38,281 bases of DNA from a virus (lineage: Duplodnaviria; Heunggongvirae; Uroviricota; Caudoviricetes): positions 1 to 38,281 of the IMG/VR virus record IMGVR_UViG_2737471992_000010; one strand, written 5' to 3'. Of this stretch, positions 1,289 to 24,719 are shown one piece after another. Position 1 is the first letter of the stretch; every line of letters begins with the position of its first letter. The position numbers and the translations under genes are program-made. Below the pieces are notes generated by a model. It did no database searches, was not told where the DNA came from, and worked only from the letters and a program-made list of their open reading frames with translations.

Positions 1289-1771
1289 CTATCTGGTCAG
1301 GGTGTCATACTGTTTTTCGCAGACTCTTCCGGCTGCGGCTGCCCGGTCAGCATACTCTGCCAGTTGTCTGTTTCTCTCGAGAGATTTGCTGAGCACGTCG
1401 GCAAGCAAAACTCCGGTGTCTGCGGCTGACGTCCCAGCGCCGACAATGGCGTTATACTGCCTGAGCTGCTCACGGATGGCAAAGAGTTGTTGCTGCAACC
1501 TGCCAGCGCGAGCGGCAGCATCAAGAGCATCATTGCGCGCCTGGTCGATCCTCTGCTGAGCTTCACGTTCATTGGTCGCTTTCTCCTGTTCGTAGTGCTG
1601 ACGAACTCTCTCATCTTCAGCTTTGCGGTCTTCCTTCGCCTGCGCATACCCGGCATCGTACTGGCGACTGCCGTGTATATTCCAGGCAACCACTCCGACG
1701 ATGAACAGAGCAGCAAGCATCAACACAATAAGCATCTGTTTCCAATATGCTTTTACGAATGCCCAGATCAT
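1289..1771 (-). CDS. Rz-like i-spanin
   Basis: 160 aa; N-terminal transmembrane segment (LIVLMLAALFIVGVVAW) then charged coiled-coil periplasmic domain; start overlaps the endolysin stop; contains an embedded +1 frame lipoprotein ORF. Confidence 0.7.
   Translation of the reverse strand: MIWAFVKAYWKQMLIVLMLAALFIVGVVAWNIHGSRQYDAGYAQAKEDRKAEDERVRQHYEQEKATNEREAQQRIDQARNDALDAAARAGRLQQQLFAIREQLRQYNAIVGAGTSAADTGVLLADVLSKSLERNRQLAEYADRAAAAGRVCEKQYDTLTR
1297..1533 (-). CDS. Rz1-like o-spanin embedded in Rz in another frame
   Basis: Internal Met of ORF 1297..1716 gives about 78 aa beginning MMLLMLPLALAGC (lipobox LAGC) with a Pro-rich mature part; exact start uncertain (1533 or 1572). Confidence 0.55.
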   Translation of the reverse strand: MMLLMLPLALAGCSNNSLPSVSSSGSITPLSALGRQPQTPEFCLPTCSANLSRETDNWQSMLTGQPQPEESAKNSMTP

Positions 1772-2397
1772 ATAGCCAGCACCTTACTGGCAGTGACGTA
1801 CCGCGCGCGCCGGTCGTCGATGCCGTTCCGGCCACCATTGATAATCAGAGTTACACGTGCAATATCGCCGGTATACTTCATGCATCCTTTGCTGGCAAAG
1901 AACCACGCCGCGCTACGAGCCGCGTATTCGTCCTGCGCCAGCAGTTCAGGACTCTCCAGCAGGTCAACCTTAAGACCGTTTCCACAGTCACGATAGTTAT
2001 TCAAACCGGTAATCTGGATAAGTCCGCGACCACGGTAATTCCAGCCATCACCAGAGGCATTGTTACCCATGCGTTTGCTGTACACCAGATTTGCGATCGC
2101 GCGCTGGCGCTCGAGTGGCAATGGTGGCTCACCAGCACGGCGGCCCAGTGCGTTAGCCTGTCCCTGGGTGAGACGCCCAGCCCGAACGAAGTTAGCCAGT
2201 CCGGTGACGCTGTAGTTGAAATTTTCCTGCAACCGGTTGAAGCCACCAGACTCATGCCCGACCTGAGCAATAAACATTGCCTGATCTTCGGGTTTGCTGA
2301 TACCAAACTCTTTCATCGCAGAAGTTATATGCGAGAACCAGCGTGCGGCCAGCGCCTCGCTAATACCAGCAGCTCGCTGGAATTGTTTAATCTCCAT
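1768..2397 (-). CDS. Endolysin, glycoside hydrolase family 19 (chitinase-like) type
   Basis: 210 aa from the internal Met MEIKQFQRAAGIS; motifs QVGHESGGF, NYRGRGLIQITG, INGG.NG match GH19 phage endolysins; GAGG RBS upstream of ATG at 2397; the longer track ORF to 2628 looks like a spurious N-terminal extension. Confidence 0.85.
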   Translation of the reverse strand: MEIKQFQRAAGISEALAARWFSHITSAMKEFGISKPEDQAMFIAQVGHESGGFNRLQENFNYSVTGLANFVRAGRLTQGQANALGRRAGEPPLPLERQRAIANLVYSKRMGNNASGDGWNYRGRGLIQITGLNNYRDCGNGLKVDLLESPELLAQDEYAARSAAWFFASKGCMKYTGDIARVTLIINGGRNGIDDRRARYVTASKVLAI

Positions 2398-2695
2398 GTT
2401 TAGACCTCGATATTTTGAAAATATGAACAACGTTACCGCGTGTTTTAATAACCGCGGCAAGCATGACAGCGTTGATAATGACCTCAGATAAATCCACAGC
2501 CATTGGCGTGCGTAACCAGATTGCATAGACGACACGAACAGGAATACTTGCCGCAGCAACAATAAGGAAATAAGCAAGCCACCCTCCCCATCTTCGATGT
2601 TGAGAGCCGTTACGCCGGAATGTGACAACGCGAATTGCTATGCCAGTACAAATAACTGCATTGGTGATAAGCAAAAAAAACTCATGCGTTACCAT
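2387..2695 (-). CDS. Small membrane protein within the lysis cassette (holin or antiholin-like)
   Basis: 102 aa with 2-3 hydrophobic segments; GGAG RBS upstream; overlaps the holin stop and the endolysin start. Confidence 0.45.
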   Translation of the reverse strand: MVTHEFFLLITNAVICTGIAIRVVTFRRNGSQHRRWGGWLAYFLIVAAASIPVRVVYAIWLRTPMAVDLSEVIINAVMLAAVIKTRGNVVHIFKISRSKHGD

Positions 2696-3086
2696 CGTCT
2701 TTTCTCCCCGGAATTAACTCGCGTGGATTATCGGAACGGTGATAGAGCCAGATGCCAATACGCACGGCGACAATTGCTGACACGAATGCGCCTGCAGAGA
2801 AAACAATCCCTTTTTCAAAAGAGTCCTGCGTGATGGTAGGGATCAGGCTGGCTATGCCGATAAGAATTGATGCTGCTGGTTTGTAAAAGAGAAGGCCGCA
2901 AAGAAAGCTGAGCATCGACAGGAGCACCCGGCGACGGATGGGGTACTCTACTGCAGAGGTAACAAAAATTACCGCCCCAGCCAAAGCCCCTAAAGCAACC
3001 TCCGGAGGGACACCTGCAATAACCGCAGCAAGAGAACTAACACTAAGCCACTGATTTGAAGTTTCATTGGTTAGTTGGAATGACAT
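2682..3086 (-). CDS. Putative holin
   Basis: 134 aa, three predicted transmembrane segments, first gene of the lysis cassette directly downstream of the tail fiber gene. Confidence 0.55.
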   Translation of the reverse strand: MSFQLTNETSNQWLSVSSLAAVIAGVPPEVALGALAGAVIFVTSAVEYPIRRRVLLSMLSFLCGLLFYKPAASILIGIASLIPTITQDSFEKGIVFSAGAFVSAIVAVRIGIWLYHRSDNPRELIPGRKDDGNA

Positions 3087-3158
3087 AACGAAACCCGTTT
3101 ATTTGCAAACACCCTGCTTCAGGAAAAGTATACCGCGCAACAACACACCATTTACGGT

Positions 3159-5621
3159 TCAATTCCCTGTTAATTGCAAAACTTGCTCTTCCAGCTTTTT
3201 AACCCTGCGTCTCATCATCGCAGATTCCAGAATCAGAGCCTCTTCATAACGGATACCGTAACATTCACCAGCCTCGACGGCTTCGCGTACCAGAACCTTT
3301 GTCTGTATAAGTGGGTAAACTCCTGCAGAATGCTCTTCTTCCGTCACATCCCTGTATTCTGCCGGGGTCTCATTCCACTTGTCATAACAGATAAATGCCA
3401 GTCGTGACACATCTATGCCTTCATTCTGAAATACACTGATAACATGCTGCGCAACTGCACCAAAGTGCCATCTTGCTCCGTCTTTACCTTTCACTTCGAT
3501 CCTGTCAAGGTACTGGTATGAAACCCATTCCACTCTTTCCCATGCGTCCAGTATTTTCTCATCAATAACCTCTGGAGCAGTCTTGAAACGCGCATCGGAC
3601 AGCACCGTAAACGCTGACTGGGTAAATCCCCCCGACCATGCACGACCAGCCAACCCAAGAGAATAAGTATTCGTTGTCGATGGTGTCATGGCTGAATCAG
3701 AAAACTGTATATATTCTGAATTTCCAGTAGATATTCGAATATTTCCATTTATTAGCGACATAGTGCCTTTAGTATTATCACTATTGAATAATTTCAATTG
3801 CGAACTTATACCGCCTCCCACAGCCAGAGATACATCGCCTTCAGCAAGCATTCTGAATTTATCTGCAGAAACAAGCGTCTGGTTAGCAAGGTTAAAATAT
3901 TTAACCCACCATTCAAAACGCCCTGACATAGTCCCAACGTACTGACCAAGCGCAGGGACGTGAACAACATTGCTATTTGTAGTGCCGTCTATACTGGAAA
4001 TACCAGTCACCGCTGATGCAGAACTCAGAATATTATTTCTGTCACCCGGATGTTTAATTTCAACAAAGTTCCTGATACACCCTTCCTCGAAGGTAACCAC
4101 GCCGGAAGAACTATACATGGGGAATATTGACGCATAATTACTGCGTGCAGCATCTAAGAAACGAATGGTTGTAGATGTCTGCAGATCTCCTGATTCATTT
4201 TTCCCATCACACCCAGTCATTAGAATATTACTGGCAATATTATTATTTCCCTGAACGGTGACTCCGTGCGCCTGCTTTGCGTCCGATTCAGAGTAATCAA
4301 CCAGCACATTCGAAATCAGGTTACCAGTCCCCTTGCCAACAACTACTGCGGCGTATTTTGGGTTGTTAGCCATTACACTGCTAATGATATTATTCGTTGG
4401 GGCAGTTTCCGTCTCAGTTCCATTGTAAACAACGTGCTGACACTCTTCACCAATAACATTGCTGACAATGTTATATTTTGCTGCTGTTTTAAGTTCCACT
4501 GCACCAAACTGAGGATAATTTCTGGCTATCACACCATCAATTAGCGTATTTTGCGATGAATCAAAAAGCACACAACCTGCTTTTTTATTATTTGCGAACC
4601 CTAAATACTCTCCTCTTATATCTCTAACAATGTAACCTGACGGAATACCATTATTCGGATAAGCGATCAAGCTAAATCCTGTTCCTCGCGTATTTGTAAA
4701 TCTGATATTTTTAACCGATACATCATGGCCACCTGAAAATGACACCTGGTGTCCCTGCACACTATCATCTGATTTATTTCCCATAATTGTTAGCGTACTA
4801 AGCATGCCACCATCGGGCATGTTAAAAACCAGATGATTACCATCTCTGTCATACTGTTTTATCGTTCCCCCACCTGTTCCGTACAAGCCACAACGTGAAA
4901 GAGAAACTAAAGATGTATTGAATACCCCTTCCGGAACAAAAACACTGCTAAACGAATGTAATGATTTTGTAAAAGCATCCTTGTTATCATTTAAGATTCC
5001 ATTTTGAGCTCCAAAATCCTTAATGCTGACACCATCACGCATCTTATCCTGGAACGTTCTGTATACCGCTCCAGAACCATACTGAATAAACCAACCAAAA
5101 CCACCAATAACTCCGGCGATTGCAGCATCGACATAATTACGCATTGAGCGATTATTTACAGCGTCCTGCTCAAGTGATGGATCGGCAAGGTTAGATATTC
5201 TGTTTTGCTTTGCATCGTAATATTTTGCAAGCAAAGATGGTTTCATCAATGCACGTCTGAACCACCCAAAACATCGCTGGATCAGCATCGTCAGGTAGTC
5301 AAATGCATCCTCATGAACTTCGGGGAAAAATTTTCCCTGATTGCGAAGATCAGTCTCCTGCACCACATCAAGCACACGCTCTATCGTGATTCGCCAGCCA
5401 GCAGCAAGCGGCGACGGAAGAACCACTGCACCGCCACTATAAGTTCCCGCCCCTGTTACCGTATAACCAGCATCCAGCACTAGTTTTGTAACGTTACCGT
5501 TAAGGTCAGACACCTGAACAACCAGGTCGGATTTTTTGAAAATACGGAAGGTATACGGAAATGATGTCGTAACGCCGTTACCTGTGTATTCGTTGTGGTC
5601 AACTTCGGTTGAGACCGTCAT
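3159..5621 (-). CDS. Tail fiber/tailspike: T7 gp17-like N-terminal adaptor, beta-helix (depolymerase-like) body, C-terminal self-cleaving intramolecular chaperone (peptidase S74-like)
   Basis: 820 aa; N-terminus EYTGNGVTTSFPYTFRIF...LVVQV resembles the T7 tail fibre N-terminal domain; central Gly/Asn/Ser-rich repeats typical of right-handed beta-helix; C-terminal segment with SDARFK motif and coiled-coil tail characteristic of the endosialidase-type chaperone domain. Confidence 0.85.
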   Translation of the reverse strand: MTVSTEVDHNEYTGNGVTTSFPYTFRIFKKSDLVVQVSDLNGNVTKLVLDAGYTVTGAGTYSGGAVVLPSPLAAGWRITIERVLDVVQETDLRNQGKFFPEVHEDAFDYLTMLIQRCFGWFRRALMKPSLLAKYYDAKQNRISNLADPSLEQDAVNNRSMRNYVDAAIAGVIGGFGWFIQYGSGAVYRTFQDKMRDGVSIKDFGAQNGILNDNKDAFTKSLHSFSSVFVPEGVFNTSLVSLSRCGLYGTGGGTIKQYDRDGNHLVFNMPDGGMLSTLTIMGNKSDDSVQGHQVSFSGGHDVSVKNIRFTNTRGTGFSLIAYPNNGIPSGYIVRDIRGEYLGFANNKKAGCVLFDSSQNTLIDGVIARNYPQFGAVELKTAAKYNIVSNVIGEECQHVVYNGTETETAPTNNIISSVMANNPKYAAVVVGKGTGNLISNVLVDYSESDAKQAHGVTVQGNNNIASNILMTGCDGKNESGDLQTSTTIRFLDAARSNYASIFPMYSSSGVVTFEEGCIRNFVEIKHPGDRNNILSSASAVTGISSIDGTTNSNVVHVPALGQYVGTMSGRFEWWVKYFNLANQTLVSADKFRMLAEGDVSLAVGGGISSQLKLFNSDNTKGTMSLINGNIRISTGNSEYIQFSDSAMTPSTTNTYSLGLAGRAWSGGFTQSAFTVLSDARFKTAPEVIDEKILDAWERVEWVSYQYLDRIEVKGKDGARWHFGAVAQHVISVFQNEGIDVSRLAFICYDKWNETPAEYRDVTEEEHSAGVYPLIQTKVLVREAVEAGECYGIRYEEALILESAMMRRRVKKLEEQVLQLTGN

Positions 5622-6121: not shown

Positions 6122-6211
6122 TTTACATCGCACTCCTCTTGTGCCATAGTAATCGGGCACTGGCAAAATCCAGTGCCGGGATTGGTCTCCCGGATTACTA
6201 AGTGGCGCATA

Positions 6212-6233
6212 CCACGCCAGACGTGGTTTTTTT
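6212..6233 (+). terminator. Weak terminator-like hairpin plus U-tract
   Basis: CCACG-CCAGA-CGTGG followed by seven T; lies downstream of GC-rich hairpins at 6156-6193. Confidence 0.35.
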
Positions 6234-6391
6234 ATGCGTATAGCACAGTCATGCCAGAATTATGGTGGGCTGAATGGGGGTCCGAAAGGACGCCGGTACC
6301 ACTTAGGCCGGTAAGACCAACTCCGTTCAGTTCACCACCATCTGATTGGTCTCAGCGGTGGTGATGTAATTCGCTAAGTGGAGACGCCATC

Positions 6392-7048
6392 ATGAACGCT
6401 CAACTCATCCCCGTATTCAACGGCACTATATCTAACGAAACAGCCCTACTTTGTAATGCCCGCGATCTGCACGCTTTTTTAGGTGTTAAAAAGGTGTTTG
6501 CAGCATGGATTACAAATCGCATATCAGAATACGAATTCATTGAAAATCAAGACTATATTTTGCTTTCCAATTTGGGAAAGCAAACATCTGGTAGAGGCGG
6601 CCACAACCGCAAAGAGTACCACCTCACCCTTGATACAGCCAAAGAGCTGGCGATGGTCGAGCGTAACGAAAAAGGTCGTCAGGTGCGACGCTACTTCATT
6701 GAATGCGAGAAACGTTTAAGACAACAAGAAACAAAAGTGGAGAAGGTCTTGTCAGGCTTCATGCCCGCCATTATGGAGGCGATCAAGCTGGAAGACAAAA
6801 AAGAATACAGCGCCCCACTGAAGCCCGGCTACCGCAGCCTGATTCATTCTCCGTCTGGTGTTCTCGGCCTGACGGAGAACTCACTGCTGATGAATCTGCT
6901 GAACAAGTTACAGGAAGACGGGCACGATGTATCGGGCGCGGCAGCGGAGCTGACCACCATGTTCTGCTACATCGTCGGTGTGAGCAAATGCCTGCGTGAT
7001 ATCCAGACCCACGCGGAGTACATCAACGACAAGGCAGGGTTCTTCTGA
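6392..7048 (+). CDS. Antirepressor (AntA-type N-terminal domain plus C-terminal domain)
   Basis: 218 aa; N-terminal region (VFNGT...[29 protein letters not shown]) resembles AntA/AntB antirepressor domains; GGAG RBS 10 nt upstream. Confidence 0.75.
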
Positions 7049-7147: not shown

Positions 7148-7312
7148 ATGACAGCGTTGAAAAATCGTACTCAGCACAATGAACAAGCAAAGCAATGCTG
7201 GGATGTCATTGGAAAAGTTATGCTTGGCCGCGCAAGCAAAGAGCGCGACAAGGATATGGTTTACCAGACAGGAACATCTTTCAGCGACTTCAAGGCGGCA
7301 TTTCGCTCCAAA
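7148..7312 (+). CDS. Small basic protein (55 aa), unknown function; not in the supplied ORF track
   Basis: ATG at 7148 preceded by AGGAGG at 6-nt spacing; translation MTALKNRTQHNEQAKQCWDVIGKVMLGRASKERDKDMVYQTGTSFSDFKAAFRSK; stop TAG at 7310-7312. Confidence 0.45.
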
Positions 7313-7335
7313 TAGAAGCACATCAGGAGTTTTCC

Positions 7336-7776
7336 TTGAAGTTTAACATTAGAATATCTAATAGTTTTCTACATGGGGAAAGCAACACCCCTTTCGCTGT
7401 AGACGGACCTTTCCTTACTGATGATGAAATAAAAATCATACAAAGTTTTTTAGAGGATGTTGCCAATGGAAGGGCGCTTGTTGGAAAAAACAAGCCCTCG
7501 TGGGTTGATGATAACCATGATAAAATTCCCGGCTCAGACAATTATGAGCAAGAGAATTATTGGCATTATCATTGTGGGCCAACATGGTATCCAAACACAT
7601 TTAAGAATTATACCATTAACTTAAATTTCAACCCTGGCGGAAGGCATTCTAATGAATGCATTCATTATGCAAAAAATGATAATGAAATTGTCATTGTTGG
7701 ATTTTCAAGAGAACACATACCTTTCCTTTCATCAGATGGAAACAACAATCCGCTTTTTAATGATGAAGAAGAATAG
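7336..7776 (+). CDS. AT-rich accessory gene of unknown function, about 146 aa, probable TTG start
   Basis: Long ORF with visibly lower GC than its surroundings; no in-frame ATG after 7195; AGGAG RBS (7325-7329) 6 nt before TTG 7336; acidic C-terminus NDEEE; followed by a strong terminator. Confidence 0.5.
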   Translation: MKFNIRISNSFLHGESNTPFAVDGPFLTDDEIKIIQSFLEDVANGRALVGKNKPSWVDDNHDKIPGSDNYEQENYWHYHCGPTWYPNTFKNYTINLNFNPGGRHSNECIHYAKNDNEIVIVGFSREHIPFLSSDGNNNPLFNDEEE

Positions 7777-7868: not shown

Positions 7869-8030
7869 ATGAAAAAAGCATTTGCTGCACTGTTCGTTTT
7901 GTTGTCTCTGGTAGCTTCAACTCAGGCCTTTGCCGGTCGTTGTCAGCACGACAGCGACACTGCCGCTGACGGCTCCCGCTGCGGTGGGCGTTCTGCGGAT
8001 TCCCGCCCGGGCGGCGGTGGCATTCGTTAA
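7869..8030 (+). CDS. Small secreted Gly/Arg-rich protein (53 aa)
   Basis: Internal ATG gives MKKAFAALFVLLSLVASTQAFA signal peptide then a short mature peptide; weak RBS, so the call is tentative. Confidence 0.35.
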   Translation: MKKAFAALFVLLSLVASTQAFAGRCQHDSDTAADGSRCGGRSADSRPGGGGIR

Positions 8031-8035
8031 AAACA

Positions 8036-8065
8036 AGGCCGCGAAAGCGGCCTGTGACATGTCAC
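8036..8065. terminator. Hairpin between convergent genes, possibly a bidirectional terminator
   Basis: AGGCCGC-GAAA-GCGGCCT stem-loop followed by palindrome GTGACATGTCAC and a T-rich run. Confidence 0.4.
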
Positions 8066-8358
8066 GTCCCTTTTCTGAATGATAGCCATTCGAAAAATGA
8101 TGACATTCCACCGCAGACAATAGCAAAGATGATCCCACCAAAGAAGAGAAGGCCAGCCTGCCACCACTCCCACCGCCATACATCCACAGCGCCAACCATA
8201 CCAACAATCGCTCCAACAAATGGAATATAGCTCACGATGAAAGCAATGGGGGCTGCAATTATCCAGTGCAATCCCCACCATGATTCAAGCCCAGCCATAA
8301 TTGCTGCCAACTGAAAAAGACCAACGACGATATAAACAATGAATCCTATAGCTTGCAT
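8062..8358 (-). CDS. Small integral membrane protein (98 aa), last gene of the virion operon
   Basis: AGGTGA RBS 6 nt upstream of ATG; three hydrophobic segments rich in Trp/Gly. Confidence 0.55.
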   Translation of the reverse strand: MQAIGFIVYIVVGLFQLAAIMAGLESWWGLHWIIAAPIAFIVSYIPFVGAIVGMVGAVDVWRWEWWQAGLLFFGGIIFAIVCGGMSSFFEWLSFRKGT

Positions 8359-8370
8359 GTAGTCACCTAT

Positions 8371-8544
8371 TTACCCAGTAAAAATCAGAGGCCTCCCCTC
8401 AATAAGGCTTGCAACAAGAACTACTCCCTGCACAACAAAGATGAACCAGCAAATAGCTTGAGTCTGAGGGTTAAGAAAATATTTGTAGCGGTCAATAAAT
8501 AACAGCCCACCAGAAATTATCACACTCAAAATAATTAAAAACAC
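8371..8544 (-). CDS. Possible small hydrophobic protein (about 57 aa, GTG start); not in the ORF track
   Basis: ORF in frame directly after the stop of the 824-aa gene; translation has two hydrophobic stretches (FLIILSVIISGGLLFI, ICWFIFVVQGVVLVASLI); no ATG start, so low confidence. Confidence 0.25.
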   Translation of the reverse strand: MFLIILSVIISGGLLFIDRYKYFLNPQTQAICWFIFVVQGVVLVASLIEGRPLIFTG

Positions 8545-8553
8545 AACACTTCC

Positions 8554-11028
8554 TTATTGCGGAGTGACATCCTGAGGTCGCCACCAGTATGTCTGGTTAA
8601 ACTCTTTCTTCGAACGTTGCTCCATTTTACGCAAATAGCCTGGTGAAAAATACTCCTGCATCTGGTTAAAGATCATGTGATCAAGAGCTGCCTTCAAGTA
8701 CCAGAGATTCGCACCTGGCATCAGCCCTTTCCCAAGTTTCACCAGATCACCACCAGTCTGCTCGTTCTTCCCTTCCACAGCATTTAATGGTATGCCCTGA
8801 GCTATCTTCACTACGTCATCAACCAGGCCAGCTACCGGGCCAAGCATCGACGCCAGCGCGCCGCTTCCGTACCTAGTGTGATCTGACAATAAAAAGTCAC
8901 CGTAAAGGCCAAGACCACCACCTTTCAGTAGAGCACCAAGCCAAAATTTAGCAGCATCTTCTCCTGTCATCTCGCGAGGATTACGACCAGACGCAAGGTC
9001 GTTAAGTTGCTGCGACAAAGCGCCAAGAATGGTCGTACTGGCAATAAACGTCGCAATATATGCCGCACGCCCACCAGCAGACGGCATACCCATAGCGCGT
9101 GACCAGTGACGCATAACCACCGAGATAGGGAACGATTTAAACAGGAAAACACTTCTCGTTAATTCACCTTTCCATGTTCCACGCTGAATACCAGAACCGG
9201 TTATCAGTTGCTCACGTGCTCCCGGTGTAATAACAGCCATATCAACTTCTTCAGTTACGGCACCGAGCAGTTTACGCATTGCCTCAAATTTCACGCGTTC
9301 AGGCTCACCAAGATGTTTAACTGCTGAATCAGGGATACGCATAATGCTTTCCGGTGTCAGCATCGTATTATTACCGTTCCCCCAGTCCTCCTGTTGCGCC
9401 AGCTTCCATACGCTCCAGTCTGTGTCAGTAATCCCTTTGCTTTTCAGGATACGAAAATCAGAGTCATCGAGGCTACGAAGGTCTGGTGTCCGTGACACTA
9501 CTTCTCCCAGGCTTCCCATCATGGTTACGCCATAGGCGCGCTTGTGCGCATCTGACCATGCTGTAAGCCCACTGGCACGCATTACCGCCGTTGCTGCCCA
9601 ACGAGACACTGACGGCCCCATATTATCCATCGCCCAGCGGTTAACGCTGCCAAGTAGAGATTCCATTGCCAGACCAGCGCGGCGCGCCCGCGCAAGTTCT
9701 GTACGGTTCGTTGGGTCCATAGCTTCAAGCTGGTTGCGGAATAACTGGTTCATTGGAAGGTTGGTCACCTTCGCAGACAGATACATGGTTCCAAGATCAG
9801 AGAACGATGATAGCAACGCGGATCCGAGTCTGCTGGCAACCAGCCAGTTGCGGATATTGTCAGACCATCGCGCGATGTGCGGATTCGCTACAGGCTGTGT
9901 CTTTCCGGAAATAAAGTTGTACAGATTCTCTGTGTTGTTCGCCAGCCGCTCGACTTTACCGGTTTTACTCGGGTTAGCTGTTGCCGTTTCTGCCTTCACC
10001 TGATCAAGAAGAGAGCGGAAAACATGATCGGGGTTTGGGCCATATGTTTCCACCAGTGCAATATCTTTACTGATACCTTCCAGGTGACCGACCATGATTT
10101 CCCATAGAGAGCGATCGCCATAAAGTTGCTGATATTGCAGATATGAATCTGCATCTTTGAAATGTATCTGTCGTGATGCATTACCACGGTTAGCACGTGC
10201 GCCGGAAATTCGCATGCCGGTATCAGTAAGCTTATTCAGCCCACCAGTGGCGATTGTGTTATAAGCTTCTCCAAGAAATGCAGACAACTCGGCATCGTTC
10301 ATCAGTTGTCCATCGGCTCGGATATAATATTTGCGATCCAGCTTACCTATAACATCGCTAACCCACTTATCCTTTGATACCGCCCCAACCTTTTCCATAG
10401 AATGATGTTGAGGGATCCCCCAGTTTTCGAGATAGCCAATGTCCCCACCAGCATCATTAAACCGGCGGCGCAGTAGCTCTGTCACTTCTCTCCACGCCTT
10501 AGCACCTTTTCTTGCTTTAGCATTGCCAGTATTTTGCCCCCGCATTTCATATACCAGGTCACGTACGCCCGCTTCATCTTCAAACAGACCAAAAAAGCGA
10601 GGATCAACTGCTTCGAATGCCTCCTGCAATTGACTCAATGCATAATCACGGGTGGCTTTTGTTCTGGATTCAACAGAGAGGAAATTCGATTTACCGTCTG
10701 CATTAAAAGCAATAGTACGGTTAAGAGCGCCAAGTTTCCCATCAGCCCCTTGATAGCTATTGATAAATTTATCCAATCTCTGACGTGCGGCTATAGTGAG
10801 GGCCACACGACGTTTCTTTAATGCCGCTTCTCGCTGTAATTCTTCAGATGCCAATTGTGCTGCACGATATAGCCGCTCTGATTCGGAAAGTTGTCTCCAC
10901 GACATCGGGTCATCACGAGCAATAGAGCGCATATTTCGATAAATGCGGTCTTCAATGTTCTGTATTTCTCGCGCCGTTAACGTGCGCTGCGCCGCCTGCT
11001 GGACCGCTTGTATACATTCCTGTCTCAT
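8554..11028 (-). CDS. Large internal virion/ejection protein (T7 gp16-position)
   Basis: 824 aa ORF in an overlapping chain of virion genes downstream of the tail tubular genes. Confidence 0.65.
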   Translation of the reverse strand: MRQECIQAVQQAAQRTLTAREIQNIEDRIYRNMRSIARDDPMSWRQLSESERLYRAAQLASEELQREAALKKRRVALTIAARQRLDKFINSYQGADGKLGALNRTIAFNADGKSNFLSVESRTKATRDYALSQLQEAFEAVDPRFFGLFEDEAGVRDLVYEMRGQNTGNAKARKGAKAWREVTELLRRRFNDAGGDIGYLENWGIPQHHSMEKVGAVSKDKWVSDVIGKLDRKYYIRADGQLMNDAELSAFLGEAYNTIATGGLNKLTDTGMRISGARANRGNASRQIHFKDADSYLQYQQLYGDRSLWEIMVGHLEGISKDIALVETYGPNPDHVFRSLLDQVKAETATANPSKTGKVERLANNTENLYNFISGKTQPVANPHIARWSDNIRNWLVASRLGSALLSSFSDLGTMYLSAKVTNLPMNQLFRNQLEAMDPTNRTELARARRAGLAMESLLGSVNRWAMDNMGPSVSRWAATAVMRASGLTAWSDAHKRAYGVTMMGSLGEVVSRTPDLRSLDDSDFRILKSKGITDTDWSVWKLAQQEDWGNGNNTMLTPESIMRIPDSAVKHLGEPERVKFEAMRKLLGAVTEEVDMAVITPGAREQLITGSGIQRGTWKGELTRSVFLFKSFPISVVMRHWSRAMGMPSAGGRAAYIATFIASTTILGALSQQLNDLASGRNPREMTGEDAAKFWLGALLKGGGLGLYGDFLLSDHTRYGSGALASMLGPVAGLVDDVVKIAQGIPLNAVEGKNEQTGGDLVKLGKGLMPGANLWYLKAALDHMIFNQMQEYFSPGYLRKMEQRSKKEFNQTYWWRPQDVTPQ

Positions 11029-24642: not shown

Positions 24643-24719
24643 GTGGCATTAGCTCAGTTGGACAGAGCAACCGCCTTCTAAGCGGTTGGTCGCAGGTTCG
24701 AATCCTGCATGCCACGCCA
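24643..24719 (+). tRNA. tRNA-Arg, anticodon UCU (reads AGA)
   Basis: Hand-folded cloverleaf: 7-bp acceptor stem GTGGCAT/ATGCCAC, D arm GCTC...GAGC, anticodon stem ACCGC/GCGGT with loop CTTCTAA, T arm GCAGG-TTCGAAT-CCTGC, discriminator G and encoded CCA. Confidence 0.9.

Follow-up and report, generated by a model that had tools for sequence, protein, structure and literature searches.

The end of the virion operon in a temperate podovirus genome holds two small genes, designated here ORF A and ORF B, whose products are predicted inner-membrane proteins and whose place in the operon is taken by other genes in close relatives. The explanation that best accommodates the evidence as a whole, which we offer tentatively and short of even confidence, is that ORF A and ORF B are independently inherited inner-membrane cargo genes that sit in a hypervariable slot and exclude other phages at DNA entry. 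The components of this explanation differ in strength. Both open reading frames are almost certainly real genes, and the comparison of related loci makes it very probable that they are accessory cargo directed at the envelope, as opposed to a core part of the virion. A role in superinfection exclusion at the DNA-entry step, proposed by analogy with characterized systems, is a possibility that we regard as somewhat doubtful.

The window, by which we mean the whole stretch of 38,281 nucleotides that was analyzed, is the genome of a Uetakevirus, an epsilon15/phiV10-like temperate podovirus. Over the 5 kb compared it is 98.8% identical to Escherichia phage phiv142-3, and phiV10 and other Uetakeviruses reach 98% identity to the same 5-kb stretch in the shared parts only. 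The virion genes lie on the minus strand, where an 824-aa homologue of IVP-D (protein D among the internal virion proteins) is followed by ORF A, ORF B and a terminator, beyond which come a convergent antirepressor operon and then the tailspike gene (3159-5621). The gene for the 824-aa protein, which ends in a TAA stop at 8556-8554, encodes a match to phrog_684 ("virion structural protein", E=0) with 28% identity (E 2e-103) to epsilon15 gp17, a protein described as a homologue of T7 IVP-D/gp16 (Hardies et al., PMC4819975); by this homology the 824-aa product is an internal virion protein. The antirepressor module located in the interval from ejection gene to tailspike comprises the isrK and C4 RNAs and AntA. 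The plus-strand convergent operon stops at the same strong hairpin as the virion operon (8036-8053), and this terminator is kept both in phiV10, where it is annotated as such, and in Klebsiella phage BUCT711. About 5 kb from ORF A and ORF B, a lysis cassette (1289-3086) encodes Phage_holin_8 and Phage_holin_3_7 proteins, a Glyco_hydro_19 endolysin and a DUF2514 protein, the last of which is annotated as an Rz-like spanin in epsilon15.

A sequence-only reading of this DNA had placed two small hydrophobic proteins at the end of the virion operon, the first from a 57-codon, GTG-initiated ORF with two hydrophobic stretches and the second from a 98-aa ORF with three hydrophobic segments and a good ribosome-binding site 12 nt further on. 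The minus-strand anatomy, the hydropathy windows and the homology to phrog_684 and gp17 bear out this description in full, and the features concerned are collected in the table.

Table. Features at the end of the virion operon in the window
Feature	Position	Strand	Remarks
824-aa internal virion (ejection) protein gene	8554..11028	-	phrog_684, epsilon15 gp17 homology; last large virion-operon gene
Shine-Dalgarno of ORF A, AAGGAAG	8549..8555	-	overlaps TAA stop of the 824-aa gene
ORF A, 57 aa, predicted inner-membrane hairpin	8371..8544	-	GTG start at 8544, TAA end at 8371, 57 codons
Shine-Dalgarno of ORF B, AGGTGA	8363..8368	-	within the 12-nt spacer
ORF B, 98 aa, three hydrophobic segments	8062..8358	-	ATG at 8358 to TGA at 8062; phrog_3075
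Intrinsic terminator of the virion operon	8026..8053	-	7-bp GC-rich hairpin AGGCCGC-TTTC-GCGGCCT plus T tract

ORF A begins after a gap of 9 nt from the 824-aa gene, and in all three genomes in which its position was looked up it lies 9-10 nt past the 824-aa homologue. Kyte-Doolittle windows delimit two hydrophobic segments (approximately residues 1-19 and 28-50), and the two hydrophobic helices are linked by a DRYKYFL loop. By itself a 57-codon ORF is within chance, dozens of that size being listed in the window, and the short length of ORF A, its non-ATG start and its omission from the nearest annotations are the features that would be expected if one or both ORFs were unexpressed chance frames. 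The comparative evidence leaves this explanation with hardly any credibility. Each of the 69 related loci with a homologue has ORF A intact, the start of ORF A switches among valid codons (GTG in 44 loci, TTG in 24 and ATG in one), and a purine-rich Shine-Dalgarno sequence lies over the upstream stop in every upstream-sequence variant seen among these loci. Frame and length hold down to 66% amino-acid identity, and when the most diverged copies were compared by the Nei-Gojobori method ORF A returned a dN/dS of 0.18-0.25, the lowest of the six frames, with an excess of synonymous changes in the annotated frame only. The Klebsiella phage BUCT711, which shares 76% DNA identity with the window in this region, likewise carries a 57-codon ORF A, there with a TTG start and a different purine-rich Shine-Dalgarno sequence.

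Homologues of ORF A make up a small family of 13 clusters, all from Enterobacterales, and searches of Pfam, PHROG, NCBIfam and PADLOC with ORF A gave no match. The earlier description of ORF A as unannotated holds for phiv142-3 and for the RefSeq sequence NZ_CP023844, both of which omit it, but not for other NCBI genomes from several Enterobacterales, where it is entered as "hypothetical protein".

ORF B is separated from ORF A by a 12-nt spacer, ATAGGTGACTAC, that includes its Shine-Dalgarno sequence, and the block ATAGGTGAC(T/C)ACATG accompanies ORF B even where the upstream gene is a different one. Its three hydrophobic segments span residues 1-25, 28-61 and 66-90 in Kyte-Doolittle windows, the loops are rich in Trp and the C-terminal tail is basic. 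Selective constraint is pronounced, with a Nei-Gojobori dN/dS of 0.02-0.05 at saturated dS, compared with values of approximately 1 or more in shifted frames. It is because ORF A homologues are intact, because their starts vary with the Shine-Dalgarno sequence kept and because dN/dS is low for ORF A and ORF B alike that we take both ORFs to be genes. The annotation of phiv142-3 stretches ORF B to 118 aa. The match to phrog_3075, a family of unknown function, is full-length, with residues 1-98 aligned to positions 1-98 of the 98-position profile (E 1.6e-54).

The family to which ORF B belongs is large. When its profile was run against 1.84 billion representative proteins, at least 742 clusters (counted at 50% identity) were recovered at E<=1e-3, with 317 reaching E<=1e-10, and the members are mostly about 100 aa long and extend to Alphaproteobacteria as well as Gammaproteobacteria. 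In a few longer relatives the domain is joined to a DUF805, RDD or MORN module, an association that is uninformative on function. Conserved positions (Q16, A19, P46, G49, G53, G56, A57, W61, W63 and F72) include those of the signature Q...P-x2-G-x3-G-x2-GA...W-x-W...F, and a basic C-terminus is usual across the family. The AF2 model of ORF B is all-helical with a pLDDT of 92; no significant structural neighbor of this model was found in the PDB or BFVD, the family profile found no relative among PDB sequences, and ORF B produced nothing above threshold in Pfam, NCBIfam or PADLOC. No paper mentioning the ORF A or ORF B genes was found in the literature, and the study of phiv142-3 contains no mention of orf12.

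From their hydrophobic segments we infer an inner-membrane location for both proteins, with the positive-inside rule predicting an N-out/C-out topology for ORF A and an N-out/C-in topology for ORF B. The two genes probably share the late-operon transcript, and their expression may be confined to the late stage of lytic growth; a consensus scan of approximately 750 nt upstream of ORF A and ORF B on the minus strand detected no sigma-70-like promoter, with the proviso that a weak promoter could escape such a scan. A weak terminator-like hairpin within ORF A (8387-8408) was dismissed, as it is absent from BUCT711. The GC content of ORF A (38.5%) and ORF B (46.5%) is below that of the flanking virion genes (49-51%), a drop that is partly expected for hydrophobic proteins.

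The region between the ejection-protein gene and the terminator has a strikingly variable content. Between the same flanks phiV10 lacks both window ORFs and carries a 46-aa gene with two transmembrane (TM) segments (p21), and epsilon15 has a 64-aa 2-TM gene (gp18) in the slot. These resemble ORF A in belonging to the same genus, in encoding two hydrophobic helices and in lying between the IVP-D homologue and the terminator, but both are unrelated to it in sequence, homology having been rejected at an hhalign probability below 1%, and neither phage carries ORF B. Among 80 IMG/VR loci with ORF B (79-100% identity to that of the window), ORF A is present in 64, and the remaining 16 have other content between the large upstream gene and ORF B. 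At eight of the 10 loci examined from these 16 the gene ahead of ORF B is unrelated to ORF A; the replacements encode either 2-TM proteins of 103 or 112 aa or proteins of 102, 123 or 175 aa with a cleavable signal peptide. At one locus (L084) a 54-aa distant relative of ORF A (hhalign probability 91%) precedes ORF B. What follows ORF A is equally changeable: it is ORF B in the window, in BUCT711 and in K. pneumoniae ATCC 13883, whereas Salmonella Muenchen and Citrobacter have a lipoprotein of 126-128 aa there and K. oxytoca has nothing. All slot occupants seen are membrane-targeted or exported. Pfam and PHROG scans assigned the other occupants to unknown-function families only, including phrog_29212 for epsilon15 gp18 and phrog_7892 for phiV10 p21, and this slot seems to form a hot spot of uncharacterized envelope proteins.

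This pattern bears directly on whether ORF A and ORF B are parts of the virion or of the ejection machinery, or perhaps membrane chaperones for ejection-protein assembly, a reading under which it would be natural for the pair always to stand directly behind the IVP-D homologue, whose stop codon is overlapped by a ribosome-binding site, and for a small 2-TM gene to occur at the same place in epsilon15, phiV10 and the window phage. The sequence-only reading had likewise named injection-channel components as one candidate role. Yet the occupants of the slot are mutually non-homologous and vary among phages that share 85-100% identity with the window in the 824-aa protein. Core parts are not swapped for unrelated genes at such identity, which argues against a structural or injection-channel role, as does the presence of occupants with a signal peptide or lipobox, which would leave the cytoplasm by export and could thus not be packaged into capsids. 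ORF B, moreover, shows 93-100% identity at loci where identity of the upstream ejection protein is only 23-28% (L059, L071-75, L086 and L103), and its relatives are also found outside phages. Together these results disfavor the injection-channel proposal and make a virion or chaperone role very unlikely.

The mobility of ORF B is further evident from its more distant relatives. Right behind distant upstream homologues in Cronobacter and Salmonella prophages ORF B is 54-61% identical to that of the window. At locus L106 a relative adjoins a prophage integrase and is oriented divergently with respect to the gene upstream of it, so that a promoter of its own must exist there. Another relative lies on a contig with a replicase (PF03090) and a ProQ/FinO-family gene, which we read as plasmid-like, and others occur in small integrative elements that are bordered by a serine recombinase and in which the ORF B relative is paired with a DUF6804 protein. 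In a Buttiauxella genome the relative is found beside umuDC.

Present in some phages and missing from others between flanking genes that adjoin in close relatives, ORF A and ORF B are moron-like in this respect, and they belong to an already known kind of gene, that of phage accessory membrane proteins. Classical morons bring their own promoter and terminator, whereas for ORF A and ORF B only a terminator is evident, and it is common to the operon. A parallel in arrangement is offered by HK97 gp15 and other morons of late operons, reported as accessory genes amid structural genes that are absent from close relatives (Cumby et al. 2012, as cited in PMC11436027).

The distribution of relatives and of slot occupants is also pertinent to lysis, in which ORF A and ORF B could take part as an extra holin, an antiholin or a modulator of lysis timing. 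Both are late-operon genes for which no promoter of their own was found, the three TM segments and basic C-terminus of ORF B form a class-I-holin-like layout, and ORF B weakly matches Phage_holin_5_2. That match (E 0.027) reaches 15.2 bits, far under the 29.2-bit cut-off, and a holin hit is seen in only one of 91 diverse ORF B relatives subjected to a Pfam scan; we regard it as noise and reject the assignment. The window already has a full lysis cassette, with ORF A and ORF B not adjacent to its endolysin or spanin genes, no endolysin is present among the called genes of the plasmid-like contig or the small integrative elements that carry ORF B relatives, and the alternate slot occupants include periplasmic proteins and lipoproteins. 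A function in lysis is accordingly unlikely, though less so than one in the virion.

If ORF A and ORF B instead act in exclusion, they would become inserted in the inner membrane of the cell, whether lysogenic or infected, and there hinder the trans-envelope conduit that the ejection proteins of incoming short-tailed phages make. Blocking this conduit would exclude superinfecting phages at the step of DNA entry, in the manner of P22 SieA or T4 Imm. To our knowledge, exclusion at this step is described in molecular detail for very few phages, these two among them.

[quoted passage not shown] The protein blocks DNA injection, with escape mutations mapping to gp16 and gp20 (Leavitt et al. 2024, PMC10883804), and sieA occurs in some relatives only, as very divergent types (PMC10883804). 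The similarities to the genes described here are of position and setting. Like sieA, ORF A and ORF B lie between the last ejection gene and the tailspike gene, beside an antirepressor module, and they come from a temperate podovirus, as SieA comes from a temperate, O-antigen-specific one. The three predicted helices of SieA may have a counterpart in the three hydrophobic segments of ORF B; ORF A has only two. The differences are also considerable, as SieA is 162-164 aa long compared with 57 and 98 aa for ORF A and ORF B, and sieA is encoded on the opposite strand, with a promoter of its own and expression in the prophage state, whereas ORF A and ORF B run in the same direction as the late operon. 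Homology of the ORF B family to SieA was rejected (hhalign probability 0.2% against P22 SieA), and the conserved SieA cytoplasmic motif FxRYPxEAxxFNK has no counterpart there.

Imm of T4 is a small inner-membrane protein of lytic growth that is not expressed from a prophage; T4 itself is a myovirus with a virulent life style, and its imm gene is early and does not stand at the end of a structural operon. According to a 2026 preprint, Imm binds the pore-forming tape measure protein and thereby blocks entry. It provides a precedent for phage-encoded exclusion that acts on the entry conduit, and any likeness to ORF A and ORF B would be one of function. Prophage exclusion systems have also been reported, in the "anti-Kronos" work, to protect the phage's own progeny.

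The earlier suggestion that ORF A and ORF B are candidates for superinfection exclusion is thus sustained in part. The hypervariable slot of envelope proteins, the mobility of ORF B and the sieA-like position speak for it, and a further point was counted in its favor: with no O-antigen conversion gene annotated in phiv142-3, the closest phage, the exclusion determinants are still to be assigned. What speaks against it is that neither protein showed sequence or fold similarity to exclusion proteins (by hhalign against SieA for ORF B, and in PADLOC, PDB and BFVD) and that no promoter of their own was found.

The lack of an annotated conversion module in phiv142-3 is also consistent with the main rival of exclusion, which is that ORF A and ORF B alter the envelope of the host through an effect on one of its inner-membrane proteins, such as an O-antigen polymerase, another envelope enzyme, a transporter or a bacteriocin target, and not on the injection conduit. 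The benefit to the lysogen would then be a changed receptor, resistance to serum or stress, or bacteriocin immunity of an orphan type. The tailspike-to-lysis interval of the window has no room for an O-antigen conversion gene, and it is in this interval that phiV10 carries oac. Within the same genus, epsilon15 gp22, a 66-aa 2-TM inhibitor of the host O-antigen alpha-polymerase, demonstrates that small TM inhibitors of host membrane enzymes exist, and survival in serum is reportedly influenced by the prophage phiv142-3.

The evolution of ORF B, with its very low dN/dS and its relatives in distant bacteria and non-phage elements, fits such a target if it is a conserved one. Constraint of this degree suggests a poor fit with an arms race against fast-evolving ejection proteins, and in combination with relatives in Alphaproteobacteria it points toward a conserved host-side target; constraint and wide taxonomic spread suggest that a conserved host target fits at least as well as a phage target. 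Against this, ORF A is without homology to gp22 (a gp22-type assignment for the ORF A family was rejected at an hhalign probability of 0.2%), and the gp22 gene is found downstream of the tailspike gene, adjoining that for the O-antigen polymerase of the phage, whereas ORF A is located elsewhere with no polymerase or glycosyltransferase partner gene nearby. No immunity or conversion family of Pfam or NCBIfam was matched, and a host target leaves unexplained the steady position behind the last ejection gene across several phage lineages. On balance we consider an action on a host membrane protein improbable, though likelier than the other rivals.

Exclusion at DNA entry by independently inherited cargo remains our preferred reading of the pair. 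A broader version of it, which we put forward as speculation, is that the stretch following the IVP-D gene is a general hot spot of interchangeable, envelope-targeted exclusion genes in temperate podoviruses and that ORF B represents a large undescribed family that blocks the entry of foreign DNA at the inner membrane.

Should ORF A and ORF B have no role in exclusion, they would amount to two ordinary hypothetical membrane proteins and a correction to the annotation. Irrespective of function, the ORF B family merits a family description, being large, strongly constrained and linked to mobile elements, with no entry in Pfam, NCBIfam or PADLOC. The ORF A-ORF B pair is present in about 205 of 5,426 complete E. 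coli genomes (~4%) and could therefore affect host range in phage therapy. If exclusion is their function, two unrelated and very small families would be added to those that act at DNA entry, and the genomic address that they occupy, from the last ejection gene to the operon terminator, could be mined for further determinants.

The terminator hairpin that closes the operon of ORF A and ORF B, which encode two- and three-hydrophobic-segment proteins, is approached from the opposite side by a convergent 53-aa ORF. Its product has a typical cleavable signal peptide (MKKAFAALFVLLSLVASTQAFA, cleaved before G) and a mature part that contains two Cys and is rich in Gly, Arg, Asp and Ser. The matching family, phrog_14503, is annotated as "membrane associated protein" in the moron category, and by tblastn roughly two in three of the related loci carry the ORF at 72-100% identity. 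The orientation of this ORF is that of the P22 superinfection exclusion gene sieA relative to gene 16.

Features of the window and of related loci
Feature	Location	Strand	Match or setting
isrK Hfq-binding sRNA	6157-6233	+	Rfam, gathering level
C4 antisense RNA	6258-6342	+	Rfam, gathering level
AntA-domain antirepressor ORF	6392-7048	+	
193-aa ORF	7195-7776	+	phrog_5954 (unknown function), E 2e-73
53-aa ORF with signal peptide	7869-8030	+	phrog_14503
tRNA-Arg (anticodon TCT)	24643-24719	+	
126-128-aa lipoprotein gene	L012 5418-5804; L016 5279-5659		phrog_3716, unknown function; Salmonella Muenchen (L012) and Citrobacter freundii (L016) prophages
ORF B relative + DUF6804 gene	L019 8001-8646; L021 8001-8594; L110 3475-4120		alphaproteobacterial elements

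Between the virion operon and the tailspike gene, Rfam matches to isrK and C4 RNA lie directly 5' of the AntA-domain antirepressor ORF; this stretch is a P1/P7-type c4-ant (immI-like) module and parallels the immI region of P22. The gap between the lysis cassette and the tailspike gene is only about 70 nt (3086-3159), whereas phiV10 carries an O-acetyltransferase gene (oac) at this place, and the annotation of the closest phage genome, that of phiv142-3, lists no gene for O-antigen conversion at any position. In that phage, two short ORFs, orf9 and orf10, are annotated instead of the 193-aa ORF, and an effect of orf10 on serum resistance has been reported (PMC7724020). By coordinates, the published orf10 corresponds to about 7466-7624 and overlaps the longer 193-aa ORF in a different frame, and therefore the annotation may need revisiting. 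The phiv142-3 record also places tRNA-Arg on the minus strand, in contrast to the plus strand found here, which is opposite to the neighbouring virion genes.

In each of three alphaproteobacterial elements, a DUF6804 membrane protein gene begins no more than about 20 nt downstream of the ORF B relative, and the two may form a conserved two-gene unit. Genes for a serine recombinase and a ParB-like protein border two of these elements. The L110 element has Mg-chelatase-domain ORFs on both flanks, as though a comM-like gene had been split by it. In the two enterobacterial prophages, a lipoprotein gene (lipobox LVGC in L016) replaces ORF B directly 3' of the ORF A homologue, and is another uncharacterised envelope cargo gene of the ORF A/ORF B slot.
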